Below the pieces are notes generated by a model, which was given only the letters and a program-made list of their open reading frames with translations, searched no databases and had not been told where the DNA came from. A program made the position numbers and the translations under genes. A DNA stretch of 64,000 nt from a virus (taxonomy: Duplodnaviria > Heunggongvirae > Uroviricota > Caudoviricetes), in IMG/VR virus record IMGVR_UViG_3300033692_000022, one strand, 5' to 3'. Below, one piece after another: positions 1-34,704 of the stretch (the stretch's first letter is position 1; each line of letters begins with the position of its first letter).

Positions 1-4
1 AAAC

Positions 5-2392: not shown

Positions 2393-2396
2393 TAAA

Positions 2397-3263: not shown

Positions 3264-3272
3264 GTGAAGTAA

Positions 3273-3707: not shown

Positions 3708-3720
3708 AAGGAGGAAGAAA

Positions 3721-4539: not shown

Positions 4540-4634
4540 TTTTAGAATAGATGAAAATTATTAGGGAAATAGGGTAAATCACTGTCAAAAAGACCCTTAA
4601 AACAGGTATTATATATATAGAGGTACTTTTAATA

Positions 4635-6035: not shown

Positions 6036-6040
6036 CATAG

Positions 6041-9000: not shown

Positions 9001-10666
9001 GAAATATGAAAGTTACGGAGAGATGTTATCAGAAATCTATGACCTAAGTAGTGATGTTGCCGATATAGATGCAATAACATTTGATTCTATAGAGGAAGGT
9101 GGCACAAGGATAGTAGTTACAGCAAGAACTTCAGATGATATGGAGAACTGGTCTAACTGGGAGCTAAAGCCCCCTAAAAATAGATACTACCAGTTTAAAG
9201 TTGAAATGTGGAGTGATGATGCTTTAGATAACAGAATAACTCCTAAGCTGGATAAAATAACTATTCAGTATTACAAATCAGAAGACCGTACAGAAATGGT
9301 TGATATAGATACTGATCCTATTAAGTTTATAATCAGGCAGGACTCAAGATACCATCAGCTATTTAATGATACAGCAGAAGAAATATTAAAAGAACACATA
9401 GAAAATAAAACTGACTACTCTATTGATAAACTCGTTATTAAAGATATTAGAGCGGAAGAAATAAGCCCAAATATAGAGGTTGAAATACAGGATAATATAA
9501 TCTATGCAAAAACAATCTTTAACCAGGACGACAGTAATATTGACTTCATATTAAATGAGGTGCCACAACAGGGTAGCCCTATAATAGTAACAGACCTTGA
9601 GACCGGTAATAAACTTAGAGCTGTAAAATTCCAGAACGAATTCGGACAGTACTCAATAATGAAAACTGAAACCCTTGAAATAACAAAAAATAGTACTGTA
9701 ATCGCCTCGTTTACTGACATAAAAGATGTTGTAGCTTACGACCTTGATGGTGATTTACTGGATGTATCTGGTGTAGATGAAAATGAAGTTACTGTATACA
9801 AGGGAAGAGACAGCCTACCAAAAGGACAAAAAATAGAGCTATCATATATCTTGAGAGATTCATTCATAGCAGATCAAAACTTCGGAGAAGAACAGACGAG
9901 GTTTACCTTTTCAAGAAAGTACGAGAATATAAAAATCGAATATGAAGGAAGTAAATTTAGTAAATTCTACAGCGCCGAAGAGGTAGAGTTAAACCCGATA
10001 TTCAGTCCTTATGTCAATGGATTTAGTTATATAAGCGAAGATAAAAAAGACCCATTCTATTTAAAGTTGGAAGTGTCTCCAGAATGGACATTCTTCGGAG
10101 TAGAAGAAAACATATCAGTATTCTGTATGATAACAGACATATTGGGTAACCCTATACAAAACCACGGCATAGAATTATTCACAAATACCGGCAGCATAGA
10201 AGTAGAAAATGAGAGTAAGACAGATCAATACGGAGTCGTTAGGGGCATATTAAAACCAGACGATGAAGCCAGACGAATTACAGTAACAGCAAGAGTAGAC
10301 GGTACAACACTAACTGAAAGCAAAAGTGTTAACGTAATCGAGGATAAGACCCCTGATTATTACTTGTTCGTAAACTCAGATACAGACCTTCTTGCTACTA
10401 CCGATGGTGATGACCTACAGGAAACACTGGTCAAGGCAAGGCTTGTTGATGAGAAATGGAACCCAGTATATGATGAAGAGATAATGTTTAATATAGTAAG
10501 CGGAAGAGGCTCAATATCTGGGAGGAAAAGAACAAATAATGCTGGAGTTGCTACTGCAGTTTACACATCGGGAAGCAATAGCGGAATATCAACTATAAAG
10601 GCAACAGCAGAAATAAACACAAAATACTATTCTGACACAAAAGAGATAGAAGTAATAGATATATAA
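6041..10666 (+). CDS. Giant tail fiber / adhesin (1541 aa) with beta-propeller-like repeats and a C-terminal bacterial Ig-like (Big_1-type) domain
   Basis: Sits in the P2 gpH position. The central region carries repeated strand motifs (IAVGYEEDGVIVIG, YLIIGSGYGGGIAVIDF, YIYASYSYSSG). The C-terminus (ARLVDEKWNPVYDEEIMFNIVSGRGSISGRKRTNNAGVATAVYTSGSNSGISTIKATAEI) resembles invasin/intimin Ig-like domains. Confidence 0.5.
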   Translation: MTKRLKAFQSGIGDNEDLFPKAPESSNIVEEFSYYLRLKGTKINNRATFPEAEFNAMLTLHANQKQANHPEESYNILLKGYPVFRVDYEVKAKARHNPATFKYKIGVKTGQWYRETGEKTGQTVKDGHFYKSSNSRVEDIITSDSNIPSDVFGGSYTVKSIAIMESGTNNTSIIIFSQDGENKIDSSDTNAIRDSYVYSKGSVYTGDIYEHKGSFTRSVTKRDGQIDLGTILNHSFPEPPAGQTVDYEIIDNSFHRNHINLRFSNGSSQTTNHNNNILLDTDYYMTKRITGDVKYGEPASIKIDSKNGWNRSIPNPSGLSRPDRFLIEKDDQSSSGYIKSNFGLSSSASITKFSTYNDDVDDRFTDTDYKIDDSLIIKSTHENYVDGAWVSNPRFFNGFVNGDGPLWMRKPYKATIEISRPKKVAEEDKEYYIIDYDIISLDYYNYRGSYKIPASIYPETIKVKLEIISYEYDYDGALDDDGVDIYFDDLTTERDLDNGIHENITVKSQTSIEENIEREWISPALSYDKINIRQGESYDRDLPDYGEFNIPDDVEPPFDYILDYDNQNINAEINNGVVSAYVRKSNNWPLNIHNGYYYLNQKENYLYANKKEVEVKDVGTDVEDRYEFKLSSTCERSFNVPESKVIEVDSKSDFENNKIASNIDLKTEEGIAKLAVNPSSNVKYSFADGMDIIDMAIDYERSQIIAGTGLSGLIIYDYYNKEKVAQLDHTNSPLKDRPISSVAYSNGRIAVGYEEDGVIVIGSENYSKLAEYTDESELNLYWRNGNKIRDLYLTDQYLIIGSGYGGGIAVIDFSTNMIEYYRTNGYEDYITSIDFDGEYIYASYSYSSGFNSGIIKWTFKDVDPDNTEEIYRDTSTYPIVVDIKAKDGKIYAAKRDDKKALIIDENGEIEEIASPDGTHLICVDVDSDYLYLGTMSGVYLYNFEHQVIEQEINNIVDFGLGNNANSIIKEKDKLFVGTVNGIAELGKKYESYGEMLSEIYDLSSDVADIDAITFDSIEEGGTRIVVTARTSDDMENWSNWELKPPKNRYYQFKVEMWSDDALDNRITPKLDKITIQYYKSEDRTEMVDIDTDPIKFIIRQDSRYHQLFNDTAEEILKEHIENKTDYSIDKLVIKDIRAEEISPNIEVEIQDNIIYAKTIFNQDDSNIDFILNEVPQQGSPIIVTDLETGNKLRAVKFQNEFGQYSIMKTETLEITKNSTVIASFTDIKDVVAYDLDGDLLDVSGVDENEVTVYKGRDSLPKGQKIELSYILRDSFIADQNFGEEQTRFTFSRKYENIKIEYEGSKFSKFYSAEEVELNPIFSPYVNGFSYISEDKKDPFYLKLEVSPEWTFFGVEENISVFCMITDILGNPIQNHGIELFTNTGSIEVENESKTDQYGVVRGILKPDDEARRITVTARVDGTTLTESKSVNVIEDKTPDYYLFVNSDTDLLATTDGDDLQETLVKARLVDEKWNPVYDEEIMFNIVSGRGSISGRKRTNNAGVATAVYTSGSNSGISTIKATAEINTKYYSDTKEIEVIDI

Positions 10667-10678
10667 GGAGGGAAGTAG

Positions 10679-11464
10679 ATGACAGAATCTTTTAAGAAAG
10701 AAATTGAAGACGGAAAATACAGATTAAAGATTGGAAAGCAGGTTCCAGAAGACGATGTTAATATATGTTATCTTGATACCCCTCCTTTAAAATCTACCGA
10801 GAATGTGTATCTTACTGATCTGTCCGAAGGGATAGCAGAAAACAGCTGGGGCGCAAGCAGCAAAGAAAGAACAATGTATTCTGGAGAAGATGGTAAGTTA
10901 TATAATGAATCATTTACAGTAGACAGTGTACCAACTGAAGATGTGCTTGTAACAGATATCTATATGGATCAAGATAACCTTAATGGCCCACTATATTATA
11001 AATACAACCTCTTATATGAACACAGAGACTACACCACAGAGGTTACAGACAATATCAACATACTAAAAGAAGATGGGTCAAAAGTAAGTAAGGAAAGATA
11101 CAAAATTGAATACACCAAAACAGCAGAGGCGACTTACGAGGTCACTCTCTTTTTGTCGTTTAACTCAGATGAAAATAACACATACAGAGTAGAGTACGAC
11201 GCCTTAAATTTCGACAAAATAGTTAAAAGAGACCATACTGAAATACTTAATGCTGAAAAGATATTTAAAGAAACATCTATCAGTGAGGTAAGAGACCATA
11301 GTAATATAGGTAAGAAAATATACGCCAAGAAGGTAGACCAGGAAACAAACGGTTATAATATTTATGTTCCAGTTAAATCTTCAGAGACAGAAGGATCACT
11401 TCACAATAAAGAGATAAATGCTGACCTTCCATTACCATTTAAGTATGAGCAGTTCATTTTGTAA
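10679..11464 (+). CDS. N-terminal segment of a split vWA-domain structural protein (continues in the −1 frame at 11449)
   Basis: 261-aa ORF ending FIL*. The downstream vWA beta-1/MIDAS motif begins in the −1 frame with no start codon (see finding). Confidence 0.5.
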   Translation: MTESFKKEIEDGKYRLKIGKQVPEDDVNICYLDTPPLKSTENVYLTDLSEGIAENSWGASSKERTMYSGEDGKLYNESFTVDSVPTEDVLVTDIYMDQDNLNGPLYYKYNLLYEHRDYTTEVTDNINILKEDGSKVSKERYKIEYTKTAEATYEVTLFLSFNSDENNTYRVEYDALNFDKIVKRDHTEILNAEKIFKETSISEVRDHSNIGKKIYAKKVDQETNGYNIYVPVKSSETEGSLHNKEINADLPLPFKYEQFIL

Positions 11465-13407
11465 TAGATAAGTCTGGTTCTATGAGAGGGGAAGACCCCT
11501 GGAACCCTATGAGAAATGCTGTCAGATACTTTAGAGATTTAGAGAATGTAGACTGTAAGTTTAATGTTACCTATTTCGATAATGATGTTCGTACTGTTTA
11601 CGGTGGTTATGTTAGCCCTTCAACAATACTAGGCTGGAATAACCCTGGTATGGGAGGATCAACAGCTTTCTATGATGCGACCAATGCTGCAGTAAGTAAG
11701 ATGATAAATTATAATAACCTACCAGAAGACCATTCCAAAACTCTTAAAGGATGGAAAAAGGTAATAATAACCATGACTGACGGTCACGACAATGCAAGCA
11801 GCTGGAGACCGCATGATGTAAAAAATAGAGCAGATAAAAACATGGACTCATTAATCTATGGAATTGCCTTTGGTGGCGGGGCGGATACAGGTGCTGTTAA
11901 TGCCATATCACACAAACACAGAAGCGACTCCTCATTGGAGCAGGCTTTTATAGAGATAAGTGAAGAAGTTAAACCGGTACCATTTTCAGACAGGATACTT
12001 GTAGGTTCTGGTCTTGTATCGGAGAACAACAGCCCACTCAAACTAAGACAGTTGATGCTCAATATAACTGATGATATGATGATCGATTCTGTAGAGATAA
12101 CAATGAATGACACCAGTAATGACGTTCACACATTCTTCATGAATGAAAATAACGGCAATAGAGTGGGTACAAGTTTTGACGGCGAGGACCACAGTAAAAT
12201 ATACGCTAAAGACCTCTTGTTTTTCAATGACTCTAAAAGTAGTTGGGAATATGACACAGACAATAGAATATATGTTTACGCCGAGACTGACAAAAAGACA
12301 AGAATATACTCAAGGCAGTATGATGTAAAGATGAAGGAAAGCAAGGGTATATATGCAAGAATGCCAGACATAGATAACATATTCAAAAACTGGTATTTAG
12401 AAGTTCATAACGGCAGGTTCAATACTGAAGTAGTATCTGGAGATGAGATATACAGCTATAATTACTACCTACCAGAATACGAAAGACAATTAAGTGTTAC
12501 CGATGGCAACAACTCTATTAGGGTAAACCAAGAGATTCCAGAAATAATTGATAGAAACCAGCTAAAGCTGGCCCATAAGCCACTTGAAGTAATATCTGAA
12601 AGAGTAGACGGAAAAAGAAATATAAAAAATATAACAGTTAAGCAGGACGAACAGGAGATAGAAATTGAAGACTTCAATGCTGAAGGCGGAATACTGTTCT
12701 TAAAAGATAATATAGATCATACCAAAGATGTCAGAGTTAGTTATTCATACACTAATGAGTGGTATACCTATAAAGGATACTACGATGAAAAGAGAGATAA
12801 ATTTGTATCACTTGACTTAAATCCATTTAATGGTCATAAATACACCAAGAAGTTAGGTAACAATACTTATGTTGAAGAAGACACAAGAGACTTATTCAAT
12901 AAAGTTATCTACCTATATTTAAGACCCGCAGATACAACCAAGAAAAGACCAGGCCGGCCTTATGAAATAGTTTTAGGTAGTAAAAATGATTACACTATAT
13001 TCCATACAATAGGACATAAGTTAAGCGAGTCTGACAGTATGTATTCTGAAAATGTAAAAGAATTAGCCATGATATATCTAAAACCAAACTCTACACAGGA
13101 AGATATATCAGTCATAGATGGCAGAAAAAGAGGCGGCGGCCTAAAGGAAACCATAAACCAGGAGATTATCGAACAGATTAATCCAGAGTCTAATTACTAT
13201 TGGGATATCGGATACTTAGACGGTAAAGCATACCCTGGCAACTCTGTAATAATAGTCAAGCTACCCAAAGAGATATTAAAAGATTATGGAGGCAAATTTG
13301 AAACACAGGAAGTAGAAGAAATAATAGATGAACACATAGCTTATGGATCTTACTTTATCATTGAATATATAGATGACGAAGACTTCATAAGTGATTACGA
13401 GCTCTAG
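11449..13407 (+). CDS. von Willebrand factor A (vWA/MIDAS) domain virion protein. The frame is open from 11449, and the ORF track starts it at ATG 11482, which lies inside the domain.
   Basis: Translation from 11449 gives AVHFVIDKSGSMRGED...GGSTAFYDATNAAVSKM...KKVIITMTDGHDNAS. This contains the DxSxS, T and D residues of a MIDAS site. No ATG/GTG/TTG precedes the DKSGSM motif in this frame. Confidence 0.6.
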   Translation, partial: AVHFVIDKSGSMRGEDPWNPMRNAVRYFRDLENVDCKFNVTYFDNDVRTVYGGYVSPSTILGWNNPGMGGSTAFYDATNAAVSKMINYNNLPEDHSKTLKGWKKVIITMTDGHDNASSWRPHDVKNRADKNMDSLIYGIAFGGGADTGAVNAISHKHRSDSSLEQAFIEISEEVKPVPFSDRILVGSGLVSENNSPLKLRQLMLNITDDMMIDSVEITMNDTSNDVHTFFMNENNGNRVGTSFDGEDHSKIYAKDLLFFNDSKSSWEYDTDNRIYVYAETDKKTRIYSRQYDVKMKESKGIYARMPDIDNIFKNWYLEVHNGRFNTEVVSGDEIYSYNYYLPEYERQLSVTDGNNSIRVNQEIPEIIDRNQLKLAHKPLEVISERVDGKRNIKNITVKQDEQEIEIEDFNAEGGILFLKDNIDHTKDVRVSYSYTNEWYTYKGYYDEKRDKFVSLDLNPFNGHKYTKKLGNNTYVEEDTRDLFNKVIYLYLRPADTTKKRPGRPYEIVLGSKNDYTIFHTIGHKLSESDSMYSENVKELAMIYLKPNSTQEDISVIDGRKRGGGLKETINQEIIEQINPESNYYWDIGYLDGKAYPGNSVIIVKLPKEILKDYGGKFETQEVEEIIDEHIAYGSYFIIEYIDDEDFISDYEL

Positions 13408-13810
13408 AAAGGAGGATTCAATGCCTAAAAGCGACTATCCAAACAATATAGATAGATTCCCTAAAGCGATAGCAAATTCTGATGGGGTGGTCGATTTAAC
13501 CCCTGAAAACTTAAATAAAATACAGGAAGCTATAATGTCAGTACAAAATGAGTTAGGGGTAGAACCAAGTAAAGATAAAGAAGATGTCAGGTCAGTGCTC
13601 GAAAATATAATAGATACTAAAGTAACTAAAGGCACTCCGATGAATCTGAATATGGAGTTAGTTGAAGATGAGAACGGAGATCAGGTTATAGATTTATCAT
13701 TTTCATACGTAGACAACAAAAATTTAGAGTATTTTATTCTGGAAGTATGGGATGAAGAACGACAAAAATACGTACCCTATGATAATAAATTAGGGGTAAT
13801 AAGAAAGTAG
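13391..13810 (+). CDS. Hypothetical virion protein
   Basis: 139-aa ORF with ribosome-binding site AAGGAGGATTCAATG. No recognisable motif. Confidence 0.3.
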   Translation: MITSSRKEDSMPKSDYPNNIDRFPKAIANSDGVVDLTPENLNKIQEAIMSVQNELGVEPSKDKEDVRSVLENIIDTKVTKGTPMNLNMELVEDENGDQVIDLSFSYVDNKNLEYFILEVWDEERQKYVPYDNKLGVIRK

Positions 13811-13818
13811 GTGCTTAC

Positions 13819-14241
13819 ATGGAAGATTTAACTATTAAAAATCTGGATGCTAAAAAAATAAGGTTAAAATTTGGTGATGAAGCTATAGTAGCAACCAGGA
13901 AAAAATTAAATACAAAGCATGTAGGTGCCAAAAGGGTACGCATAAGAGCAGTAATCAATGGAGACAAAAAAGAATTTTGTTATTTTGGGAGGTTCAAACT
14001 CCCTGTAAAGGATAAAAACAAAGTTAGAATCAAAGGCAACAATGGTCAGTGGGTTGAAGGAAAAACGATCAACCTGCTCAAACCACCTACTATATCTTCT
14101 TCTACAGTAAGAAAACCATATTCTCCAAATCTTCAAGTGGAGGTGATTAATACTCCAATAAGGCCAGACACCCTATCTGTTTATAATGAAAAAGTATTGC
14201 AGCACCCCAGAAAAATAGAAACAAGTACCAAAAAAATATAA
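13819..14241 (+). CDS. Hypothetical basic virion protein
   Basis: 140-aa ORF, Lys/Arg-rich, with a TACATGG start context. Confidence 0.3.
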   Translation: MEDLTIKNLDAKKIRLKFGDEAIVATRKKLNTKHVGAKRVRIRAVINGDKKEFCYFGRFKLPVKDKNKVRIKGNNGQWVEGKTINLLKPPTISSSTVRKPYSPNLQVEVINTPIRPDTLSVYNEKVLQHPRKIETSTKKI

Positions 14242-14253
14242 GGAGTTGGTAAT

Positions 14254-15459
14254 ATGCCAAAAAGAACAAAATTAGTATTTGATAGAAACAGTGATGACAC
14301 ACAAAAGTACAATGTCTACAGAGGCAACCAGACAGGAGTTACAAGTTCTTCTGAGCTTGTAATGGAAATTTCCCAGCCAGCAGCACAGTCTGTTATTAAA
14401 GATGTAGTTGGAGAAACTCTTAGTGCAGACGCAGAATTTTTAGTCTATACAGCTGGTCACAAAAATATAATAAACGATGGAACAAATTATCCAGTTACAG
14501 TTTATGTTAATGGGACAGAACAAACAACAGGATTCACCATTAACTATTTACTCGGTAAAGTTACATTTGATGTAGCTTTAACAGTAAATGATGTAATTAC
14601 AATGGATTACAGTTATGACGCGGTAGAGGTTTTAGATGATGACGGTACACAGACTAATGTAACATTCTTAGGAACAGTAGCACAAGACTTAGCTGCTCCA
14701 GATATTCCTGCAAACCCAGGCATAGTTGGAGACGACGCCAATAACAAAGCGATAGTATCATGGGATGGAGTATTAGCAGATAACGGAAGTCAGTACTTTT
14801 ACAAAGTAGAAGCAGAAGATGAGGTAGGAAATAAATCTACATTAACTGCAGAAGTAGCAGCAGTATTAACTGAGGGACTTCATGCAAACCCTTATGTTCT
14901 TGAGAAATCAGAAGACGGAGGAAACACCTGGAGTATAGTAGGAGAATTTAGTACTACTTCCTATGAGGAGACAGGAGTAGATACTACTGCACCAGATGGA
15001 GTGGCTTCTTTAGTATCTACAGTTACAGAAGTTGGAGATCCATTAAAACCAGCTGTTCAGCTTACATGGCAAAACCCTGCTGATGACAATGAAACAATGT
15101 CTCTGACTTATAGAGTTAAATCACAGGATGCTAATGGGAATGTTTCTAGTCCAGGAGCTGCAGTTGGACCGGTTCCAGTATCAACAGGACTTAAAAGAGT
15201 ATTCATTAAGCGTAAGGTAGATGACGGAACTTACCCAACTAATAACGATACCTCTCTTGTAGTATTCGATTCTACAGATTTCACAAATCAATCTTTTGTT
15301 GATTTAGATGTAGCAGAAGATACAATATACAACTACTCAGTTTTTGTTGAAGATAATGCAGCGAACGTATCGGTTGCGGCTACAGTTCAGGCTTCAGTTG
15401 GAGACTTCACTGCTCCTGAAACAGTAACTGGATTAGCAGCTGAGGAAGTAACTATATAA
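14254..15459 (+). CDS. FN3/Ig-like repeat structural protein, possibly an abundant tail or decoration protein
   Basis: It carries several fibronectin-III-like modules (QYFYKVEAEDEVGNKSTL; LTYRVKSQDANGNVSSPG). A strong GC hairpin terminator follows, and its N-terminus is paralogous to the next gene. Ribosome-binding site AAGGAGTTGGTAATATG. Confidence 0.4.
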   Translation: MPKRTKLVFDRNSDDTQKYNVYRGNQTGVTSSSELVMEISQPAAQSVIKDVVGETLSADAEFLVYTAGHKNIINDGTNYPVTVYVNGTEQTTGFTINYLLGKVTFDVALTVNDVITMDYSYDAVEVLDDDGTQTNVTFLGTVAQDLAAPDIPANPGIVGDDANNKAIVSWDGVLADNGSQYFYKVEAEDEVGNKSTLTAEVAAVLTEGLHANPYVLEKSEDGGNTWSIVGEFSTTSYEETGVDTTAPDGVASLVSTVTEVGDPLKPAVQLTWQNPADDNETMSLTYRVKSQDANGNVSSPGAAVGPVPVSTGLKRVFIKRKVDDGTYPTNNDTSLVVFDSTDFTNQSFVDLDVAEDTIYNYSVFVEDNAANVSVAATVQASVGDFTAPETVTGLAAEEVTI

Positions 15460-15472
15460 TACTAAATAAATA

Positions 15473-15492
15473 GGCGGGGGCTTCCCCGCCTT
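15473..15492 (+). terminator. Rho-independent-like terminator hairpin (GGCGGGG-gctt-CCCCGCC)
   Basis: A 7–8 bp all-GC stem directly after the stop of the FN3-repeat gene, followed by a short TT. Confidence 0.5.
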
Positions 15493-15515
15493 AAGATACA
15501 TAAAGGAGTGATAAA

Positions 15516-16055
15516 ATGCCACTAGGTATAAGAATTTCATGGAATAAAAACAATGATGACACAGTAGAATACGGAGTCTGGAGGAGAACAGAGTCAACAG
15601 AACTCTCAGAAATAACAAGAGTGCCTCAACCTACAGATCAAACTAGCCCATCTTATAACGATGAAAATATAGATATAGCGGATCCAACAGCGCCTGGTAT
15701 TACAATAAATAGACCAACGACCACAAGTGCAACTGTAGAGATAACAACAGTATCTACAGATGCAGCAAATCCTGTTTATTACTATTCAATAAAATCATAT
15801 GATGAGGCCGGCAACAGCTCACCATTGTGTCCAGAGGTAAGTCTGCAGCCTTCAAATGCAATAGATAGATATGAATGGACACTAATAAATGATGCAGATT
15901 CAAGCACAGTAGACAGTGGAGTAATAGACCCACTTAATCCAGTATCAGCAGAGACAACACTAACAGCTGGAGAAACTTATCATTACGAAGTTAAAGCTGT
16001 AGATCTTGACGGAAACGAAAGTACATTAACTTCATCCGAGCCATTTACAGTATAA
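15516..16055 (+). CDS. FN3-like structural protein, paralog of the 14254 gene N-terminus
   Basis: ISWNKNNDDTVEYGVWRR aligns with FDRNSDDTQKYNVYRG of the upstream gene. YYYSIKSYDEAGNSSPL is an FN3-like strand motif. Confidence 0.4.
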   Translation: MPLGIRISWNKNNDDTVEYGVWRRTESTELSEITRVPQPTDQTSPSYNDENIDIADPTAPGITINRPTTTSATVEITTVSTDAANPVYYYSIKSYDEAGNSSPLCPEVSLQPSNAIDRYEWTLINDADSSTVDSGVIDPLNPVSAETTLTAGETYHYEVKAVDLDGNESTLTSSEPFTV

Positions 16056-16069
16056 GAGAGGTGAAATAA

Positions 16070-16615
16070 TTGACTACAGAATTTGAAAGACACTATGATA
16101 ATATAGGAGAAATTATAGATGCTCAAGACGTCAATGAGCTGCAAGATGTAATAAATATCAATGAACAAAATATCCAGATGTTAAGAGATGTTGATTTCGA
16201 AGATTTTTCCCTTTGGCTACTTAAAAACAGGGAGGAATTCAATCGTTTATGGATAGATACATTCAATGACAAGACTAAGATAGATGAAGTTGAAAGCTCA
16301 AAATTAATATACCTACCTAAAGATAGAATGGTAAAAGTCAGGAGAGATCAGGATTTTGCAGAGCTTTATTCTAAAGCCTATAATGATGATGAAAATATAA
16401 ATAGAGCTATCCTGCTAACACAGACCGCGGTGCATAATAGTGAAGATTTAATAAAATTTCAAATATCTATTAATGGTATGTCTTTTGAGGATATACAACC
16501 TAACGAGTTATTCGAGCCTGATAATATAGGTAATAGTTTTAAGTTAAAAGCGCTGTTTAACAAAGATAGTGAGAAAGGACCAGAGCTCTACAGATGGGCT
16601 TTGCTCTGGGGATAA
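16070..16615 (+). CDS. Hypothetical protein (TTG start)
   Basis: 181-aa ORF with GAGGTGAAATAATTG ribosome-binding site spacing. Confidence 0.3.
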   Translation: MTTEFERHYDNIGEIIDAQDVNELQDVININEQNIQMLRDVDFEDFSLWLLKNREEFNRLWIDTFNDKTKIDEVESSKLIYLPKDRMVKVRRDQDFAELYSKAYNDDENINRAILLTQTAVHNSEDLIKFQISINGMSFEDIQPNELFEPDNIGNSFKLKALFNKDSEKGPELYRWALLWG

Positions 16616-16638
16616 TATATTAAGGAAGGAGTGAAGGA

Positions 16639-17529
16639 ATGCCTCGGATACAAAAACTTATAGATGGTACATTTAAAAAAGTTGACAATAAAAGAGAAAG
16701 AGAACTACATGAAAAAATCGACCAGGAGATATTAGAAAGAATATCTGAAGATGATCGGATAGAGGATAAATTCACTAAAATAACAAATGATTTAGAGATA
16801 GATATAGATAATGTAGAAGAAGCACTTAACCAATTTATAATTGAACAAAATAATATAAATGATGAACTTAAAGATGAAATAGATACAGAAAGAAGTCAAA
16901 GACTTGAGGCAGATGACACACTCCAGTCCAATATAGATTCTGAAGAGAATGCTCGTAAATCAGAAGATCAAGCAATAAGGAATGCGATACAGAACGAAGC
17001 AGAAGAAAGAGCCTACGAAGACCAAAAACTTCATAATAAAATAGATGATGAGATATATGACAGAGAACAGGCAGATATAGAACTCAATGAAGTTATCAAC
17101 ACTGAAAGGTCCGAAAGAATAGAAGCTATAAACGATCTCGATTCCAGGCTAAGGCAGGAGATTGTTGATAGAGAAGACGCTGATAATTCTTTAGAGAAAA
17201 AAATAGAGCGCGAGACAAACGAAAGAAAACTTGATGTTAGAATCCTTAATCATAGAACAGATGAAGATACCATTCTTACAAATATGATAATGGATCTTGA
17301 CAGTGAGCTCCAATCTGAGACTAATGCAAGAGAAGCAGAAGACCAAGCACTGCATGCTAAGATAAACCAAGAAATAGCCGATAGAGAAAGTGATGTCTCA
17401 ACTCTTACAACAAATCTCGACAATGAAATACAAACTAGAGTGTCTGAAGTTAATAGACTTGATCAGAGAATAGATGATCATACTGATTCCAACAACTCAG
17501 ATCCGACAATAATCTACAGACTCAAATAG
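16639..17529 (+). CDS. Tail fiber coiled-coil repeat protein, N-terminal part of a split gene
   Basis: Acidic heptad-like repeats (LQSNIDSEENARKSEDQAIRNAIQNEAEERAYEDQ...). The same repeat continues in the −1 frame from 17487. Confidence 0.5.
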   Translation: MPRIQKLIDGTFKKVDNKRERELHEKIDQEILERISEDDRIEDKFTKITNDLEIDIDNVEEALNQFIIEQNNINDELKDEIDTERSQRLEADDTLQSNIDSEENARKSEDQAIRNAIQNEAEERAYEDQKLHNKIDDEIYDREQADIELNEVINTERSERIEAINDLDSRLRQEIVDREDADNSLEKKIERETNERKLDVRILNHRTDEDTILTNMIMDLDSELQSETNAREAEDQALHAKINQEIADRESDVSTLTTNLDNEIQTRVSEVNRLDQRIDDHTDSNNSDPTIIYRLK

Positions 17530-19064
17530 ATGAACTTGATACTATGCTATCGGATGAAGAAACTACAAGGTTTAATGCCGATAAGGCCTTGAGGGATGAC
17601 CTTGACGCTGAAGAGGCAGCAAGAATAGCCGGGGACAACAACCTACAGAACACAATAGACCAGTCAATAGATAATCTTCTGGCCAGAGAATTCTACGGGG
17701 TCGCAGAAGAGACACTCGGAACAGTAACTACTACAACATATGACTTAAATACATCTCAGGAAATAGTACAGGATGTAAGATATTTTGTAGTAATGAATAA
17801 TGACGGCACAGAGGTTATTGGAGATAGCGGCAGTCCAGTTAGTGTTGTAGACATATCTAATAAAACTATCACTTTTAGTGAAACTCCTAATCAAGATGTT
17901 GTTGTTCAGTTCGCAATCAAAAAAACATTAGGCACACTGCCTGCGGACGCACTAATAACTTATGATACCGTAGGTACTAAATTAGATGCAGATATTACCG
18001 AAGTTATAGGGGCCGCGTATTATGATGGGCGAAAGAATGTAGCAGATAACTTCTCACTGGATGTAAGAATAGAAAACGAGATAGAAGATAGAACCAACGC
18101 TGATAATTCTCTCCAAAGCAATATAGACTCTGAAGAGGCGGCAAGAATAGCAGCTGATAATACACTGCAGGATAATATAGATGCAGAAGAGGCGGCTAGG
18201 ATAGCAGCAGATAACGCCTTAGAGCAGACTATTGAAGACGAGGTACAAACAGCAATCACTCAGCTTCAGGCAGATATAGCGGCGGAAGAACAGGCCAGAA
18301 TAGATGCCGATAATGAACTGCGTAACACTATAGAAAATGAAGTCCAAACTGCAATAACACAAATGGAAGAAGACCTTGCGGCGGAAACAGCAGCCAGACA
18401 GCAGCAGATAGCAGACCTACAGGAACAAATAGATAATGATATACAGATAGCCATTGACCAGATGCAGTCAGATCTACAGGCCGAAAAGACAGCCAGACAA
18501 AATGCCGACGACGCATTACAGGCTCAAATAGATACACTTAATACTGAAGTAGCTTCTAAGTTTGATGACCTATATGATGACTTCTATGCTCACCACCACG
18601 ATTCTCAGTACGTAAATCAAGACGGAGACGAAATGACAGGAGACTTAAGTTTCTCTGCCGGTAAAGGAATAGAGTGGTATGAGAATACTGATGGGGCTGA
18701 AATCAAGTTTAACAGTGATAGCGATAGCGCCCAACAGTCTAATCTTGAGTTTAGAGTAAGAGACAACATGGATGAAGGCTTTAAGTTTATAGCATATAAC
18801 GATGGTGTAGACGTAGACGGCATAGAGCTAATGTATATGAATAAAGATAACTTTGATTATCGCGGCCATGAAATCTGGCATGCAGGAAACGATAGCCACA
18901 ACTCAGGTTTAAATGCAGATATGGTCGACGGAGAACACAAAACAGAAGTTAAAGATAATGCTAGAAAACAAACAAATGAATTGAGATTAGAGACTAGAAC
19001 TTCTGATCCAGCAAATGCTGAGGTGGGTAGAATATGGTTAAGAACAGACTTAGTACCAGAGTAA
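17487..19064 (+). CDS. Tail fiber coiled-coil repeat protein, C-terminal part, ending in a DGDEMTGDL-type fiber tip domain. The frame is open from 17487 and the track ATG is at 17544.
   Basis: Repeats DNSLQSNIDSEEAARIAADNTLQDNIDAEEAARIAADNALEQ are followed by HHHDSQYVNQDGDEMTGDLSF, a motif recurrent in phage fiber distal domains. Confidence 0.5.
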   Translation, partial: FQQLRSDNNLQTQIDELDTMLSDEETTRFNADKALRDDLDAEEAARIAGDNNLQNTIDQSIDNLLAREFYGVAEETLGTVTTTTYDLNTSQEIVQDVRYFVVMNNDGTEVIGDSGSPVSVVDISNKTITFSETPNQDVVVQFAIKKTLGTLPADALITYDTVGTKLDADITEVIGAAYYDGRKNVADNFSLDVRIENEIEDRTNADNSLQSNIDSEEAARIAADNTLQDNIDAEEAARIAADNALEQTIEDEVQTAITQLQADIAAEEQARIDADNELRNTIENEVQTAITQMEEDLAAETAARQQQIADLQEQIDNDIQIAIDQMQSDLQAEKTARQNADDALQAQIDTLNTEVASKFDDLYDDFYAHHHDSQYVNQDGDEMTGDLSFSAGKGIEWYENTDGAEIKFNSDSDSAQQSNLEFRVRDNMDEGFKFIAYNDGVDVDGIELMYMNKDNFDYRGHEIWHAGNDSHNSGLNADMVDGEHKTEVKDNARKQTNELRLETRTSDPANAEVGRIWLRTDLVPE

Positions 19065-19080
19065 TGGAGGTGAATTATAG

Positions 19081-22000
19081 ATGGCAGGACAAAAGTTAGT
19101 ATATGATTACTATAGAGAAAGAAGAGGTAGCTGGTACTGGCTTAGCTCAAATCTAAGAGAATGGCTAAATAGCGACCAGGAAAATGTAGGATATACTAAT
19201 GAACCTCCAAATAGTAGCAACCTAGGTTCTGATAGTTATGCGGATGAAGCCGGATTTTTAACTAACTTTACAACAGCAGAAAAAAATGCTATAGCAGTAA
19301 CAAGACACAGAGGGTATACCAGAGGTGTTGATAGTTCCGTAAAGGATGGTGGGAGTACTGATTTAAACTTTTCTTCGTCTTTTGATACTCCATTTGCTAA
19401 CTATTATTGCTCGGGTGTTGAAGATAATTGGGGCTCTTTTAATTATAAAATTTCAGATGATAAAGTATTTTTATTTTCTCCAGTAGAAATTCACCATTAC
19501 TCACAAAGTAGAAATTTCAACATAAAAAAAGCGCCTTCCCAGTATATAAGAAATAAATATAATATATCTTCAAATTATATAAAGTATACCGTTCAGAATG
19601 GGGAGCACTACGACAGACTTTGCGCAATTAGCGATGAAGGAACATTCTCTTCTACTAACTCTGACTCTACAACAGGAATAGCACCTGCTATACATCTCAA
19701 ACCCGATTATACGTTGGATAGTGGGAAAAAAGTATCAAATTTAAAAGTTGGAGAAGAAGTCGTATTTGGTAATTATGGTGGACACCAAATATCGTGGATA
19801 GTAGTTAATAAAACTCCAGATGACTTTGCATTGCTCTGGTCAAAAGAAGTAATAACTTTAAAAGCATACGATTCTCCTAATGATGACTTCTCCTGGGAGT
19901 ATTCAGACCATATAAATTTCAGCAACTATGATGTAAATATAATTAACGACCTTCAAAAATGGTATCCAACAAATGATAAAACTTTACCGAGACTTTATCT
20001 TCTCAATGAAGACGATCTAAATTCAAGACAAGACGGCGGATGGACCTTAAAATTACAGGCAGAAGATACAGGGTCCGGCATAGAAAAGATAGTATTACCT
20101 GATGGTACCGAAGTTTATGATAACTACGCTGAATATTATATTACTGAAAATAAAAGATATTTCATGCACACTGTAGACAATGCTGGGAATAGAAATAATC
20201 TAACTATTCCAGTAAGTAATATAAACCCACCTTCTTCTGTGGACATCAACTCATCATCTGATGGATGGACTAATTCAGACGTAAATGTAGAGATAAAAGC
20301 ATCTAATGACGTAAATGATTATTATGCAAATGAAATAATAACAAATAGTAGAGACTGGTATGGTCCAGCTTGGCCGAATTCTATATCTTACACTGGAAAA
20401 ACCTTCAGAGTGACAGGTAATATAGAATTAATAGATCACAGCGCAGATTTAGGTAATGTAAGAGCAAATGTGGGTTTTAGATATATAAGAAGATATAATA
20501 AAAACGATGGGTACGACATATCGAATAGTTGGCCCACAATAGAACATTTTTATCTTAGGGATATTAACGGAACACAGGCTAGTTTTGATTTTGAATACAC
20601 AGTACCTGGGGATTATTATAAAGATATAAGGCCATTTTTACAGATTGGAGTAGCACATCATAATCATAATTATACAGTAAAATACACTAATGTTAAATAC
20701 GAATTACTTGATAAAAGTGACTTTGGTATAGATTACATCAAACTACCAAATGGTCAGAAAATATATCAAGACACTTATACAACCACAATCACAGAAGAGG
20801 GAACGTATACTTTTGAGGTTATGGATAATAGAGGCGTAGTTACATCAAGAACTATAGAGGTGCTGATAGAAACTAACCCTCCAGATCTAAATATAAGTCA
20901 GGAAGTAACCAAGAAAACCAATCAAAGTTATGACCTCATTGTAAATGCTTCAGATTCCGAAAGCGGAGTTAAAAGAATACTGCAGCCCAACGGCGAATGG
21001 GTTGAATCTGATTCTTTAAGGTATAATATTTATCAAAATGGAACCTATGAGTTTACAGCAGAAGATAATGCTGGTAATAGAAAAACTAAATCAATAACAG
21101 TATCAAATATAGACAAGACTAGCCCAGTAGACCCCAATATCCATGTAGTTGATAAAGGAGAAAATCACGTAACACTTAATTGGATAGCAGATGATACAGA
21201 GTCAGATATAGATTCAATCAGGTTATATTTCCAAGAATCAGACAGTGATGGTAATCATCTGAAAGATATAGATATCAACGGAGATGGAAACACAGAATAC
21301 GACGTTGATGTTACTGGCCAGGAATCATATACGATTAATGGATTAAATGATTACACATACTACAGATATTATTTAAGAGTGATAGATTCAGTAGACAATG
21401 TAAGAAATGACGGCTATCATACCGTAAGAACTCAAGACACTACGGGGCCAATAGTAGATATAACATCGCACAACGATAATACTAATATCGGATATATCGA
21501 CGGCAATCAACTCACTTTAAGCGGAACAGCAGATGACAATGGAGAGGTTGATAGAGTAATCTTAAACGCTTCGGGCGCAGTCACACTTAATGACTTAGTT
21601 ATAGACGACAGCTCACCAGAAAACTGGAGTTATACAAGATCATATCCCGAAGGTCATACAAGACTAGAAGTTAAAGCAATAGACAAAGCCGGCAACGAAT
21701 CGGATGCCAAGTATATAGAATTTGATGTAGATACTGAAGCTCCTCAGATTGTATGGAATAATCACACAGATAAGAGCTGGCGCAACACTGTACCTGATGT
21801 CCACACTAATAATATAGATATAAACTCTGGTATTAGCACCTCAAAACTAGCAGTAACCTCAAATACAACTAAACCTTCCGACTGGATTAATGACTCCTCA
21901 CCTAGTAACACATACTTCCAAAACACATTAGAAGGAAAACCAGATGGTGAATGGTACTGTCATGTTGAAGTAACAGACAACAACGGCAACAGTACTTATA

Positions 22001-22830
22001 GTTACCAGGGACCATTTAAGATAGACAGAAGTGAGCCTACACATGTGTCACATTCCATATCTGGAGCAGATTATGTAAGAGATAATAATTACTATGTTAA
22101 ACCTAATAGGGAATTTTATATAGAAGTAGAGGGAGAAGAAAACACACTCCTTTCTCATAACTACCTAAATCTAAATGGTGACAACGTTGATATAAGAGCA
22201 TATCAGGTACTATCAGACGAATCATTTAATGAGTACAGAACAGGAAACTATGCTGAGATAATATCGGCTGAGAAGGTAAATTCAACAACTACAAAATTTA
22301 AAGTAAGAATAAAAGATAATGCACCTAACGGATTTATTTTCAATGTAAACGGATGGCACAAAAACGAGGCCGGCACATTAAGCAGATTCACTACTGATAT
22401 AGATATAATAGTAGATGCTAATCCTGCTCAAATGAATGGGTGGGAGATAAAGAACGCACCCTATTTCGATGGCAACACTTATTGGGGTAAACAGGGTGAT
22501 CAGATGACTTTTAACCTCAAGGGCTATGACGACGTAAGCGGGGCAAAAAGAGGTTACATTCAATTAGTTAACAAAGAGACCGGCGACGCCGAACACGCCT
22601 CATACAATAGGGATGAGGGCTATCTCAGCGATTCTAGGGAAGAGCCTAATGTAGATGTAACAACTGGTAGACTAATAAGCAGCGATGATAAAAATATGGA
22701 GATAGAGTTTGATTTTACTCTAGGTAATCAGCCGACAAATTATGACTTATGCTGGTACTGGTACGATAATGTTAAGAACACAATGGATTATACAGATACC
22801 GGCAAAGATATAGGAATAGAAATATCATAG
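19081..22830 (+). CDS. Giant Ig-like/FN3-rich tail fiber (1249 aa), truncated by a frame break
   Basis: It carries three copies of an approximately 90-aa Ig-like module (DSGSGIEKIVLPDGTEV...VDNAGNR; DSESGVKRILQPNGEWV...AEDNAGNRKTKSITV) and an FN3 module with a DINGDG loop. Confidence 0.5.
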   Translation: MAGQKLVYDYYRERRGSWYWLSSNLREWLNSDQENVGYTNEPPNSSNLGSDSYADEAGFLTNFTTAEKNAIAVTRHRGYTRGVDSSVKDGGSTDLNFSSSFDTPFANYYCSGVEDNWGSFNYKISDDKVFLFSPVEIHHYSQSRNFNIKKAPSQYIRNKYNISSNYIKYTVQNGEHYDRLCAISDEGTFSSTNSDSTTGIAPAIHLKPDYTLDSGKKVSNLKVGEEVVFGNYGGHQISWIVVNKTPDDFALLWSKEVITLKAYDSPNDDFSWEYSDHINFSNYDVNIINDLQKWYPTNDKTLPRLYLLNEDDLNSRQDGGWTLKLQAEDTGSGIEKIVLPDGTEVYDNYAEYYITENKRYFMHTVDNAGNRNNLTIPVSNINPPSSVDINSSSDGWTNSDVNVEIKASNDVNDYYANEIITNSRDWYGPAWPNSISYTGKTFRVTGNIELIDHSADLGNVRANVGFRYIRRYNKNDGYDISNSWPTIEHFYLRDINGTQASFDFEYTVPGDYYKDIRPFLQIGVAHHNHNYTVKYTNVKYELLDKSDFGIDYIKLPNGQKIYQDTYTTTITEEGTYTFEVMDNRGVVTSRTIEVLIETNPPDLNISQEVTKKTNQSYDLIVNASDSESGVKRILQPNGEWVESDSLRYNIYQNGTYEFTAEDNAGNRKTKSITVSNIDKTSPVDPNIHVVDKGENHVTLNWIADDTESDIDSIRLYFQESDSDGNHLKDIDINGDGNTEYDVDVTGQESYTINGLNDYTYYRYYLRVIDSVDNVRNDGYHTVRTQDTTGPIVDITSHNDNTNIGYIDGNQLTLSGTADDNGEVDRVILNASGAVTLNDLVIDDSSPENWSYTRSYPEGHTRLEVKAIDKAGNESDAKYIEFDVDTEAPQIVWNNHTDKSWRNTVPDVHTNNIDINSGISTSKLAVTSNTTKPSDWINDSSPSNTYFQNTLEGKPDGEWYCHVEVTDNNGNSTYSYQGPFKIDRSEPTHVSHSISGADYVRDNNYYVKPNREFYIEVEGEENTLLSHNYLNLNGDNVDIRAYQVLSDESFNEYRTGNYAEIISAEKVNSTTTKFKVRIKDNAPNGFIFNVNGWHKNEAGTLSRFTTDIDIIVDANPAQMNGWEIKNAPYFDGNTYWGKQGDQMTFNLKGYDDVSGAKRGYIQLVNKETGDAEHASYNRDEGYLSDSREEPNVDVTTGRLISSDDKNMEIEFDFTLGNQPTNYDLCWYWYDNVKNTMDYTDTGKDIGIEIS

Positions 22831-23369
22831 AGATAGATATTAATGTCGAGGACAGTCAGTCAGGAGTAAAAAGTGTCGAATACAAATTCGACCACAGCAC
22901 TCATTACTCTGGAGACAACTTAAGAACTACTGGTACTCAGGATACCCTCTTTATAGAAGCCCACGGTGAATGGTATCTTCATATAAGAGCAGAGGACAAT
23001 GCCGGGAATGTTGTAAGACAGACATTCGGTCCTTATGTTAATTACTCGGACCCTAAAAGATATATGAAGATCCAGACACCCGGCGGCGAACAGGAAATAC
23101 CACTATATGAACTCAATCAAAGAGTAGACAACAGGCTGAGAATAAAAGCAGCAGATGAAGTGGTATGTATAGGATTAGTCCCACCAGATGATAAGAGGGC
23201 AACAGAAATAAGAGTTAAGATGCCTGAAGCAATATATGCAGTAGAAGGGAACAGAAATGTATTCAGATTCTCAGAGATCGATCCTAACTTAAGTAATGAC
23301 TTTACTCTTGGGGAAGATGAAATAACAATAGATACTCAAAGAGGATTCGACGGTGGAGAATTAGTATAA
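22776..23369 (+). CDS. C-terminal continuation of the 19081 fiber in the −1 frame. It includes a fourth Ig-like module, and there is no start codon before 23064.
   Basis: The frame is open from 22776. It encodes DINVEDSQSGVKSVEYKF...HGEWYLHIRAEDNAGNVVRQTF, the same module as in the upstream ORF, with 290 nt lacking ATG/GTG/TTG. Confidence 0.5.
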   Translation, partial: EHNGLYRYRQRYRNRNIIEIDINVEDSQSGVKSVEYKFDHSTHYSGDNLRTTGTQDTLFIEAHGEWYLHIRAEDNAGNVVRQTFGPYVNYSDPKRYMKIQTPGGEQEIPLYELNQRVDNRLRIKAADEVVCIGLVPPDDKRATEIRVKMPEAIYAVEGNRNVFRFSEIDPNLSNDFTLGEDEITIDTQRGFDGGELV

Positions 23370-23383
23370 ACTAGGAGGCAGAA

Positions 23384-23791
23384 ATGAGTATATTAAATAA
23401 CTTACCCAACTGGAATGCACAGTCAGATAGGGTTGTAGAACCAGATAACGATAAGAAAGCAGCTGGGTGGAGGCTCGGTGAAGAGCCACCTCCTGGTTAC
23501 TTTAACTGGTTCTGGAATCTCGTATCCGATTCATTAAATATTTTAGATACACATAATCACGATGATAGATATTACACCAAAGGTTACTTTGATTCTCACG
23601 ATCATGACAGTTTATATTACAGAAAAGATTACATCGATTCTCACGAGCACGACGACAGATATTACACAAAAAATGATGTTAATAGTATGCTCGGGGCCAC
23701 CTATATTGAAAGCCCAACTGTTGGTAATATATTAGTATCAGACACCGAGCCAACTAATGCAGAAGAAAACGACATATGGATAAAGTTATAA
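23384..23791 (+). CDS. Short tail fiber protein: conserved N-terminal anchor domain plus HxHD-RYY histidine repeats
   Basis: LPNWNAQSDRVVEPDNDKKAAGWRLGEEPPPGYFNWFWNLVSDSLNILDTHNHDDRYYTK is shared with five other fiber genes. It also has repeats SHDHDSLYYRK and SHEHDDRYYTK. Confidence 0.45.
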   Translation: MSILNNLPNWNAQSDRVVEPDNDKKAAGWRLGEEPPPGYFNWFWNLVSDSLNILDTHNHDDRYYTKGYFDSHDHDSLYYRKDYIDSHEHDDRYYTKNDVNSMLGATYIESPTVGNILVSDTEPTNAEENDIWIKL

Positions 23792-23804
23792 AGGAGGCAG
23801 TAAA

Positions 23805-25667
23805 TTGGGATATATAACACCAGATAAATCACCGGGTATATACATGGACCCGATTACTGTCAACTTTAGTGTTGATAGCAGGGTAGTAAATATAGCAGAA
23901 ACTCAGGATGGCAGCAACCCAACAATAGCAAAATATATAGCATATGATAATCTAAACCCACCTAATCCATTCATAGCGACCGTACAGGACGGCAGGGGTA
24001 ATGTTCTGTTCGATGGTGGATTTCCAAAATACTACAATATGAGAGTAAATTCTTCCTGGACTTCATTTTCTCAACTTAATGATACATTTAAGTATTTTCA
24101 TAATGCTTTAGATTGGATAGCAAACGATGATAAGGTATCAGAAGGTAATCGTAAGATGTTATTTCTTGGTGATTCAAACCCTGGAGAATCTTACAACATC
24201 AAACAAACAGGCGGCAGTGATTTTAAAACATCTATAGAAACAATGTGTACTACTGGTAACTGGGACCCTACCTATCTGACAAGAGAAGATTTCAGCGGCG
24301 GCCAAATCGATTTAAGTTATGCTGATTTAGAGCCTTATGTTGGCGTATTCCTGATGTCGAGTAGGCATACATCTAATAGATATATAACTCAATCAACTGT
24401 AGATAATCTATTGGCTTTTAGAGAAGCCGGTAACGGTATGTTTATCATAACAGACCATGGTTCTAGTGCAGACAACGGTTTTTATAGAACTGCTAATTTC
24501 ATAGCTGAAGAACTTGGGGCTCAATTTTTAGGATATTATAATAGATCACCTGTTAATGTTGGTTTCTTAATAGATAACTACGGTAATCATCCTTTATGGT
24601 CTGGTATGGATAGGAGTGGATATGTCCACGCTGGAAGTTCGGAGTCTGAAATAATTGTAGATGAAACACCAACTACTACAACAGCAGACTCTCTTACTGT
24701 AAGTGAACAGGGTTTTAAGACAGCAAGATTCTTAATAGAGCTCGATACAGGAGAAAAGGTATTTGAAACATATTCCTACGGATTGAATGCTGGAGACCCT
24801 ATTACTTTCAATAACGATATTCAAAATGGAGAGCTTAAAATAGGATTCGGCAGAACTATAGATTTAGATTTCGATATAAATTTAGGAATAATGGACAGCG
24901 CTTCAGGGCTAGTAAGAAGGAACAGCGATGTAATAGCTCAGTGGTCAAAAGACAGCGGCGGAATGACAACAGAATGGTTTACCGAAAGTGGTAACAGTAC
25001 CATTAAGGTAGATGATGGGGACTCAATAAAGGTAGCCTTACAGTCTCCAGTCTATTATGCAGAGTCTTTTACTATTAATGCAGCACCTCGAACTTCGACA
25101 GCCATCGACATAAACCTCGAAGATAAGACAAGTAAATACATTTCACTAAGCTGGACCTATGATAGCAGGATAGAACTAGACCATCTCGAGCTTATCTTTT
25201 TAAAAAGCGACGGATCACAGATAGATATAGATGATGACGGTACATTAGAAGATAGGTTAAACCTCAATAAAAGCCTATCATTTAGTGCAAGTAATCTTGA
25301 GCCGGCAACAGAATATAAGTTCAAACTAAGAGTATATGATGTTAACGGCGGCAGTTTAGACAGCAGCTATTATACAGCTAAAACAAACGGAGTACTTAAG
25401 ATACTTGTCGATAATACCTACAAGATACCACGCAACGCTCTAGTAAAAAAAGGAACAGGCTGGTCGAATTTTACAACTCAAATAAAGAATAACGGAGAGT
25501 TTGAGGAAATCGACATAGGGCCTACGATACAAACTTCCATGTTTACTACTGACATGTGGACAGAGTTTTCAAAAGAGGTGCGGGCAATCCACCTGTTAGA
25601 TAATGACTCTGATCTATATGGCAGCAGCCTTGATATTATAGATGTAATAGACTCCTATGGAATATAG
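23805..25667 (+). CDS. Tail protein paralog A, part 1: N-terminal hydrolase-like domain (GDS / TDHG motifs), FN3 module, beta-rich region
   Basis: TTG start after ribosome-binding site AAGGAGGCAG. It is approximately 75% identical over its N-terminal 260 aa to the 27431 ORF. It contains LFLGDSNPGES and FIITDHGSSADNGF. Confidence 0.45.
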   Translation: MGYITPDKSPGIYMDPITVNFSVDSRVVNIAETQDGSNPTIAKYIAYDNLNPPNPFIATVQDGRGNVLFDGGFPKYYNMRVNSSWTSFSQLNDTFKYFHNALDWIANDDKVSEGNRKMLFLGDSNPGESYNIKQTGGSDFKTSIETMCTTGNWDPTYLTREDFSGGQIDLSYADLEPYVGVFLMSSRHTSNRYITQSTVDNLLAFREAGNGMFIITDHGSSADNGFYRTANFIAEELGAQFLGYYNRSPVNVGFLIDNYGNHPLWSGMDRSGYVHAGSSESEIIVDETPTTTTADSLTVSEQGFKTARFLIELDTGEKVFETYSYGLNAGDPITFNNDIQNGELKIGFGRTIDLDFDINLGIMDSASGLVRRNSDVIAQWSKDSGGMTTEWFTESGNSTIKVDDGDSIKVALQSPVYYAESFTINAAPRTSTAIDINLEDKTSKYISLSWTYDSRIELDHLELIFLKSDGSQIDIDDDGTLEDRLNLNKSLSFSASNLEPATEYKFKLRVYDVNGGSLDSSYYTAKTNGVLKILVDNTYKIPRNALVKKGTGWSNFTTQIKNNGEFEEIDIGPTIQTSMFTTDMWTEFSKEVRAIHLLDNDSDLYGSSLDIIDVIDSYGI

Positions 25668-27411: not shown

Positions 27412-27430
27412 GGAAAAGGAGGGGAATTTT

Positions 27431-32696: not shown

Positions 32697-32707
32697 GAGG
32701 TTATTAA

Positions 32708-33325: not shown

Positions 33326-33355
33326 AAACTAAATTAAGAAAGAGGAAGTGATAAA

Positions 33356-34129: not shown

Positions 34130-34144
34130 ATAGGGGGAATTAGA

Positions 34145-34582: not shown

Positions 34583-34704
34583 TGAGCGGCCTTAAATTTA
34601 ATGGCAAGAATCCTAAAGAAAAGACCGACAAAGAAAGAATAACTGAACTCGAAGAAAAGATAGCAAAATTGGAAAAAATCATAGAAGAAAATACAACTAA
34701 TTAG
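34582..34704 (+). CDS. Small coiled-coil protein (40 aa), absent from the ORF track
   Basis: The ATG overlaps the upstream stop (TAATG) and is preceded by GAGGTGA. The product is MSGLKFNGKNPKEKTDKERITELEEKIAKLEKIIEENTTN. Confidence 0.25.
   Translation: MSGLKFNGKNPKEKTDKERITELEEKIAKLEKIIEENTTN

Follow-up and report, generated by a model that had tools for sequence, protein, structure and literature searches.

A predicted phage tail fibre gene divided by a 52-nucleotide deletion in a viral contig that carries eight blunt deletions within its baseplate and fibre module

Recoding in phage tail and structural genes is known from the −1 frameshift of lambda G/GT and the 50-nucleotide (nt) bypass of T4 gene 60. 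The locus described here lies in the Caudoviricetes record IMGVR_UViG_3300033692_000022, of which we analyzed a stretch of 64,000 nt (the window). It resembles both systems in that two consecutive open reading frames of a putative tail fibre gene, ORF1 (16639..17529 (+), 296 amino acids (aa)) and ORF2 (17544..19064 (+), 506 aa), occupy different frames, and in that the length that turns out to matter, 52 nt, is near that of the T4 bypass. Unlike in those two systems, the extra 52 nt sit in an intact allele, where they code for protein; the broken allele has no slippery site, and the two-frame layout is not conserved. We therefore compared the locus with identical and related loci in other assemblies, and we are highly confident that ORF1 and ORF2 are the halves of one gene that carries a 52-nt deletion, with no recoding, a confidence that does not extend to how the deletion originated. 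The feature is ordinary, and its sole unusual aspect is that it belongs to a cluster of eight blunt deletions.

The split fibre gene and its intact allele

The original prediction took the two ORFs for pieces of a single fibre gene, and its account of the letters is borne out. The frame of ORF2 is offset by −1 relative to that of ORF1 (16639 mod 3 = 1; 17544 mod 3 = 0), is closed on its upstream side by a TGA at 17484-17486, and is open from 17487, with the translation FQQLRSDNNLQTQIDELDTMLSDEETTRF... The only ATG, GTG, or TTG in this open frame before 17560 is the ATG at 17544. ORF1 ends in ...RIDDHTDSNNSDPTIIYRLK (also quoted as ...HTDSNNSDPTIIYRLK) at a TAG stop codon, 17527-17529, while the −1 frame reads ...SDNNLQTQIDELDTMLSDEETTRFNADKALRDDLDAEEAARIA, the same repeat that is present on both sides.

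An identical 181-aa protein is encoded directly upstream (16070..16615) in other assemblies, and we used it to reach the intact locus. Both in ENA ERZ27245728 contig k141_29228 (202,621 bp; 10570..13125 of the fetched locus) and in Logan SRR5852467_63787 (6402..8957 of the fetched locus), the fibre gene is a single ORF of 851 aa, with the same neighbours, start, Shine-Dalgarno sequence, and stop as in the window. When the window is aligned with either assembly over this gene, 2426/2426 shared bases are identical, and the only differences are two segments, of 78 and 52 nt, that the window lacks. Both segments are also carried by a third assembly, ENA ERZ27245802, which is about 99% identical. 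An intact identical allele is thus at hand, and the lesion can be pinpointed.

The frameshift is caused by the loss of the 52-nt segment at 17501..17502 (+), which is present in ERZ27245728 (11511-11562 of the fetched locus), SRR5852467, and ERZ27245802 and has the sequence CATAATTAGAATAGATGGCAGAATAGACCAGGAGATAAACGATAGAACAAAT. The intact protein reads ...RIDDHTDSNNSD IIRIDGRIDQEINDRTN SDNNLQTQIDELDTML... across this site. The loss takes the third base of the Asp-314 codon (GAC, cut after GA) together with the 17 codons for IIRIDGRIDQEINDRTN, so that one 18-residue repeat is removed and the frame is shifted; the joined codon, GA plus T, still encodes Asp, and there is no microhomology. The second lesion is an in-frame 78-nt deletion at 17251..17253 (+), placed after 17251 or 17252 with an ambiguity of 1 nt, whose missing piece encodes the 26 residues QRLGTEIQTRTSEDQRIDARIDQETS. 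This deletion was not visible from the letters of the window. The gene encodes 851 aa, compared with the about 800 first estimated.

The composition of the two fragments follows from this comparison. ORF1 is the gene of the intact ENA contig (from 10570 of the fetched locus) except for the two missing segments, and it comprises 288 authentic residues with an internal 26-residue gap, then eight out-of-frame codons (PTIIYRLK) and the TAG. ORF2, a JGI gene call, begins at an ATG that corresponds to residue Met-347, inside the 851-aa protein. Upstream of this ATG, 14 authentic fibre codons (SDNNLQTQIDELDT, 17502-17543 (+), in the frame of ORF2) are stranded behind the deletion junction. These codons are real coding sequence and not a chance continuation, because they are base-for-base part of the intact 851-aa gene of the other assemblies. 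The first five residues of the −1 reading quoted earlier, FQQLR (17487-17501), are instead an out-of-frame reading of ORF1 codons.

Two more distant relatives also read through in one frame. A metagenome scan yielded Ga0136556_1017358 (1158..2474, partial), in which homologues of the two genes upstream of ORF1 are followed by a single uninterrupted stretch of 439 open codons, cut short by the contig end, that aligns colinearly (51% identity) with ORF1 and the initial third of ORF2; it keeps the Met of LDTMLSDEE as an internal residue. At the junction this relative has 36 residues (2 x 18), as does the intact allele, whereas the window has 18 codons and 2 nt. The 52-nt shortfall was predicted from this relative before the identical assemblies were found and was then directly confirmed. 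The other relative, P0002 (531 aa, ENA ERZ2647865), came from a search with the fused translation and combines the N-terminus of ORF1 (MPRI..L.DGTF.K) and the globular domain of ORF2 in one protein, with a centre that is 41% identical to that domain. Both share with the intact allele the N-terminal motif (MPRI..L.DGT..K), the 18-residue rod, the globular insert (YFVVMN.DGTEVIGD), and the upstream genes. They differ from it in identity (51% and 31-41%), and in P0002 the rod is much shorter and the C-terminal domain differs. In the cultured-phage collection we found no near-identical DNA, and tblastn with the fibre and with a 659-aa neighbour gave no matches among the phages, so that no fibre homologue was detectable there. 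The IMG/VR scan returned solely distant coiled-coil proteins below 35% identity, and the GTDB genomes held no fibre relative.

The translation signals are those of a single gene. The fibre gene has a Shine-Dalgarno sequence, AAGGAG (16626..16631 (+)), 7 nt before the ATG at 16639, and true gene starts in the window show 5-8 nt matches to AAGGAGGT at a spacing of 3-8 nt. No Shine-Dalgarno sequence precedes the ATG at 17544, and the downstream fragments of the other split genes described below likewise have none, save a weak 4-nt GGAG before 26821. The downstream fragment thus has no translation signals of its own, and its Met is internal in the relatives. On the deleted allele, a ribosome starting at 16639 would read eight wrong codons and stop at the TAG at 17527, and the remaining 520 codons would lie in the −1 frame behind an internal Met codon without a ribosome-binding site. 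Most likely, then, the 3′ codons are not translated and this copy could not make a functional fibre.

Three other explanations of the two-frame layout were weighed. In the first, the gene has undergone functional fission into two associating proteins, an anchor with rod (ORF1) and a rod with tip (ORF2), for which the 14 nt between the stop of ORF1 and the ATG at 17544 make reinitiation conceivable. We consider this very improbable: besides the missing Shine-Dalgarno sequence, relatives with an unsplit gene conserve this Met as an internal residue, the absence of any substitution since the split leaves no time for adaptation, and five other frameshifting deletions affect neighbouring genes of the same contig. 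In the second, a programmed −1 frameshift or other recoding event joins ORF1 to ORF2, as their overlap in a −1 configuration and the lambda G/GT precedent might suggest. Neither an X XXY YYZ heptamer nor a slippery run is present in the overlap (17487-17529), however, and the gene is one continuous ORF in Ga0136556_1017358, ERZ27245728, SRR5852467, ERZ27245802, and P0002. A frameshifted product would also be one repeat short and out of register. We give recoding next to no credence. The third explanation, and the repair originally proposed, was a single-base indel or sequencing error in tcagatccgac, and although one added base does fuse the frames into a plausible repeat sequence, it is exceedingly unlikely: the lesion is a 52-nt deletion and not a one-base indel, because the identical assemblies hold exactly 52 extra nt here, no homopolymer of four or more occurs in 17480-17550, and the added base breaks the 18-residue register.

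The register deserves a closer look, since a check of the coiled-coil phase across the junction had been suggested as a test of the fused gene. Residues 264, 282, 300, 318, and 336 of the intact protein each mark an occurrence of the h-xxx-h motif; these are in phase modulo 18 and are followed by a heptad (7-residue) insertion. The recurrence of such hydrophobic motifs at every 18 residues over many repeats is compatible with a coiled coil. Before the identical assemblies had been found, we had compared two repairs by their spacing, with 19 residues resulting from the addition of 1 nt and 18 from the removal of 2 nt. The single-gene idea stands, but the phase is broken under the one-base repair, since the downstream part shifts one residue off the 18-residue register. 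A phase not conserved across the junction is what the original prediction itself had named as evidence against it.

Eight deletions in the baseplate and fibre module

Four loci of the ENA contig were stitched and aligned to the whole window. Positions 1..64000 of the window correspond to ENA 133722..198232 and are 100% identical to it, with no insertions and no substitutions, except for eight segments that are missing from the window. These eight blunt deletions measure 43-124 nt each and 511 nt in total; all lie between 11448 and 28226, and none in the other 47 kb. For all eight to fall inside 16.8 kb of 64 kb has a probability of about 5e-4.

Six of the eight deletion lengths are not multiples of 3 and shift the frame, and all five large fibre/adhesin genes of the module are broken: the 851-aa fibre gene, a 923-aa VWA-domain gene, and genes of 1464, 1258, and 1775 aa. 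The first deletion, of 43 nt (11448..11449 (+)), splits the VWA-domain gene into 10679..11464 and 11482..13407. Downstream of the two fibre lesions, a second 52-nt deletion (22820..22821 (+)) truncates the 1464-aa gene, which has DUF6273, Big_13, and fn3 domains, to an ORF of 1249 aa (19081..22830), with a stop 10 nt later; a remnant of the gene persists at 22821..23383, and a 54-nt deletion (23276..23277 (+)) lies in this now untranslated 3′ part. The 1258-aa cadherin/Ig-like gene carries two deletions, of 124 nt (25661..25662 (+)) and 46 nt (26793..26794 (+)), and is left in the pieces 23805..25667, 25769..26824, and 26821..27411. Finally, the 1775-aa cadherin/Ig-like gene falls into two pieces, 27431..28228 and 28206..32696, through a 62-nt deletion (28225..28227 (+), after 28225 or 28226 with 1 nt ambiguity). 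The 5′ parts of the latter two genes (window 23806-24608 and 27432-28226) are about 75% identical at the nt level and encode paralogous N-terminal domains; the 62-nt deletion begins where this similarity stops.

Junction microhomology amounts to 0, 1, 0, 0, 0, 0, 0, and 1 nt in order, that is, six zeros where 4.3 would be expected for arbitrary blunt joins. One example of a junction 40-mer among the eight sites is CAACAACTCAGA joined to TCCGACAATAAT. The broken fragments (261/641, 506, 1249, 607/351/196, and 265/1496 aa) correspond to JGI gene calls, all made on one contig of 134,508 bp; the deletions are therefore in the public record and were not introduced in the window. No other contig on record yields the broken fragments; for the intact genes, records come from ENA, Logan, and other JGI assemblies. 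A literature search on the sample accessions gave no result. None of the junction 24-mers occurs in any other fetched contig, and no product of a single deletion was found in the protein collection. The 52-nt deletion of the fibre gene is private to this contig.

For annotation, ORF1 and ORF2 should not be entered as two genes, nor the site as a candidate for recoding. The 851-aa ORF of the ENA and Logan assemblies is the proper gene model, and the same correction applies to the four neighbouring giant genes that are broken in the contig. A clean-looking contig that is 100% identical to other assemblies over 47 kb can hide a cluster of medium-sized deletions in its fibre module, and these give rise to spurious "split genes".

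Origin of the deletions

Nothing was found that argues against a single gene. Some features weigh against our reading as a whole. Eight deletions against zero substitutions in 64 kb are an unusual mutational spectrum, and a de Bruijn-graph assembler does not usually produce blunt deletions of 43-124 nt. Reinitiation at the ATG at 17544, 14 nt after the stop, is improbable but compatible with the sequence. The contig copy is defective either way, and no new mechanism is involved. As to origin, we put real deletion-bearing DNA at about an even chance, regard a technical cause as a serious contender that falls short of even, and leave a small share for something else.

If the deletions are real, several samples would contain a defective genotype alongside the intact phage. 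That genotype may be a decaying prophage (an integrase is encoded at 52845..53762) or a variant complemented by the wild type, and its deletions may be the work of a process that targets the host-recognition module, for instance recurrent attack by nucleases or CRISPR and subsequent end joining. The genotype would then represent an unusual, deletion-only route to losing host-recognition genes. Two contigs from other samples favour a real origin. Logan SRR34913713_466 ends at ENA 151016, the last base common to the intact and the 78-nt-deleted alleles, and JGI 3300033746 Ga0373123_459 ends at ENA 160917, immediately ahead of the 46-nt segment. For the roughly 42 contig ends that were examined, at least two coincidences of this kind have a probability of about 4e-5 (2e-4 if the deletion zone alone is considered). 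The clustering of all eight deletions within 16.8 kb and the presence of the integrase point in the same direction. On the other hand, no other assembly contains any of the junctions or broken products, and eight deletions with zero substitutions do not form a neutral spectrum. The junctions also lack microhomology, hairpins at their ends (z −1.6 to +1.1), and a shared motif, and a phage with five broken fibre/adhesin genes should not reach dominance. A stronger version of this account, in which the eight deletions are real lesions that define a fibre-less genotype co-occurring with intact phage and were made by a directed process (for example, a series of nuclease or CRISPR attacks on a prophage, repaired by end joining) and not by ordinary mutation or faulty assembly, we consider improbable.

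If the cause is technical, the segments would be present in the phage DNA of the sample and would have been lost in assembly, scaffolding, or polishing, where contig ends in a strain-heterogeneous region would be joined without the intervening bases. This account is consistent with the restriction of the differences to deletions, with no insertion or substitution in 64 kb, and with a microhomology that fits arbitrary blunt joins. The six frameshifts and five broken large genes would be lethal for a phage, the broken products come from one contig only with no junction 24-mer in the other fetched contigs, and the region is one in which other assemblies are highly fragmented, many of their contigs ending at ENA 146-151 kb. 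However, de Bruijn-graph assemblers need reads that contain the junction, and we know of no standard step that bluntly joins contigs without Ns. The flanking sequence is unique in that no 14-30-mer in it is repeated, and the missing segments show no strain variation in other assemblies. Moreover, that two contigs of other samples end exactly at left breakpoints suggests a branch in other read sets.

Several candidate mechanisms were considered, none of which found support. Repeat-mediated deletion is at odds with the 0 nt of microhomology and with a length of 52 nt, which is 2 nt short of the 54-nt repeat unit, and no k-mers of 14-30 nt are repeated at the breakpoints. Hairpins that would join the ends were not supported. 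The segments do not behave as hypervariable cassettes, as there are no differences inside them in any other assembly, and no relocation of a segment within the window was found. As for restriction and re-ligation, two of the junctions create a GATC, but the intact allele has no GATC at the ends of the segments.

Contig ends in other samples show some further regularities. The ends at ENA 151016 (loci L163 and L187 of our collection) and 160917 are left unexplained by a purely one-assembly artefact. When the 1775-aa gene was used to look for a contig beginning at a right breakpoint, the ENA contig alone was retrieved. Many other-sample contigs (L165, L166, and L188-L193) end near the start of the fibre gene, at ENA 149.6-150.8 kb, which corresponds to about 15.9-17.0 kb of the window. 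Strains that are 98-99% identical concentrate their differences in this same interval, a local hot spot of strain heterogeneity.

Fibre architecture and neighbouring genes

The intact 851-aa protein consists of an N-terminal domain (about 70 aa), a long rod predicted to be alpha-helical, a globular insert (about 150 aa), a second rod, and a C-terminal domain. The first rod is built of the 18-residue (7+11) repeat, and the C-terminal domain is similar to phage tail-fibre proteins. Database matches are local and weak. They comprise PHROG 19567 (tail fiber protein, E 5.7e-9), PDB 9l9p_S (putative tail fiber protein) over residues 496-688 of the second rod (E 1.4e-8), and PDB 5yvq_A (phage Mu tail fiber protein S) over residues 701-763 (E 5e-5). 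The last match surrounds the DGDEMTGDL motif, which had been taken for the tip that ends the protein; its actual place is residue 705 of 851, which leaves about 146 residues on its C-terminal side. No annotated match was obtained for the N-terminal domain, the first rod, or the globular insert. The gene sits in a baseplate/tail-fibre module, with sheath-initiator and Baseplate_J/wedge genes upstream (3273..4539) and genes with Gp10_C domains downstream. Judged by these features, the gene is a phage tail fibre gene with a predicted alpha-helical coiled-coil shaft.

Over >90% of its length, the wedge protein of the baseplate (window 3721..4539) shares 40-42% identity with its counterparts in Moorella phage MTATph1 (176.6 kb) and Bacillus phage 0305phi8-36 (218.9 kb). 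Like the element studied here, both phages combine a large genome with an extended module of very large fibre/adhesin genes, but they show no DNA-level similarity to the window and have no detectable fibre homologue. Because of this likeness, and because the neighbouring 1775-aa gene has homologues in Bacillota, we infer that the element is probably a large myovirus-type phage or prophage of a Bacillota host. Among GTDB genomes, the integrase gave only 31% matches, to Acholeplasmataceae and Tenericutes metagenome-assembled genomes, and no host was assigned from it.

A few features elsewhere in the window complete the picture. The tyrosine integrase gene (52845..53762 (−)) is nearly the sole large gene on the minus strand; an Amidase_3 endolysin (49083..49712 (+)) and a holin are encoded upstream of it. 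Just beyond the end of the window, the ENA contig encodes a small Tad2-like protein (PF11195; 19620..19892 of the fetched locus). Downstream of the giant genes, a Gp10_C-domain protein has 205 aa in the window (32708..33325) and 261 aa in the 98.7% identical strain of ENA ERZ27245802 (6999..7784 of the fetched locus), which is natural length variation in the fibre module. Upstream of the fibre gene, the adjacent genes 14254..15459 and 15516..16055 share an N-terminal motif (..N.DDT..Y.V.R) and have weak DUF1093 matches. They are probably paralogues and not another split gene, and both are intact in all assemblies.

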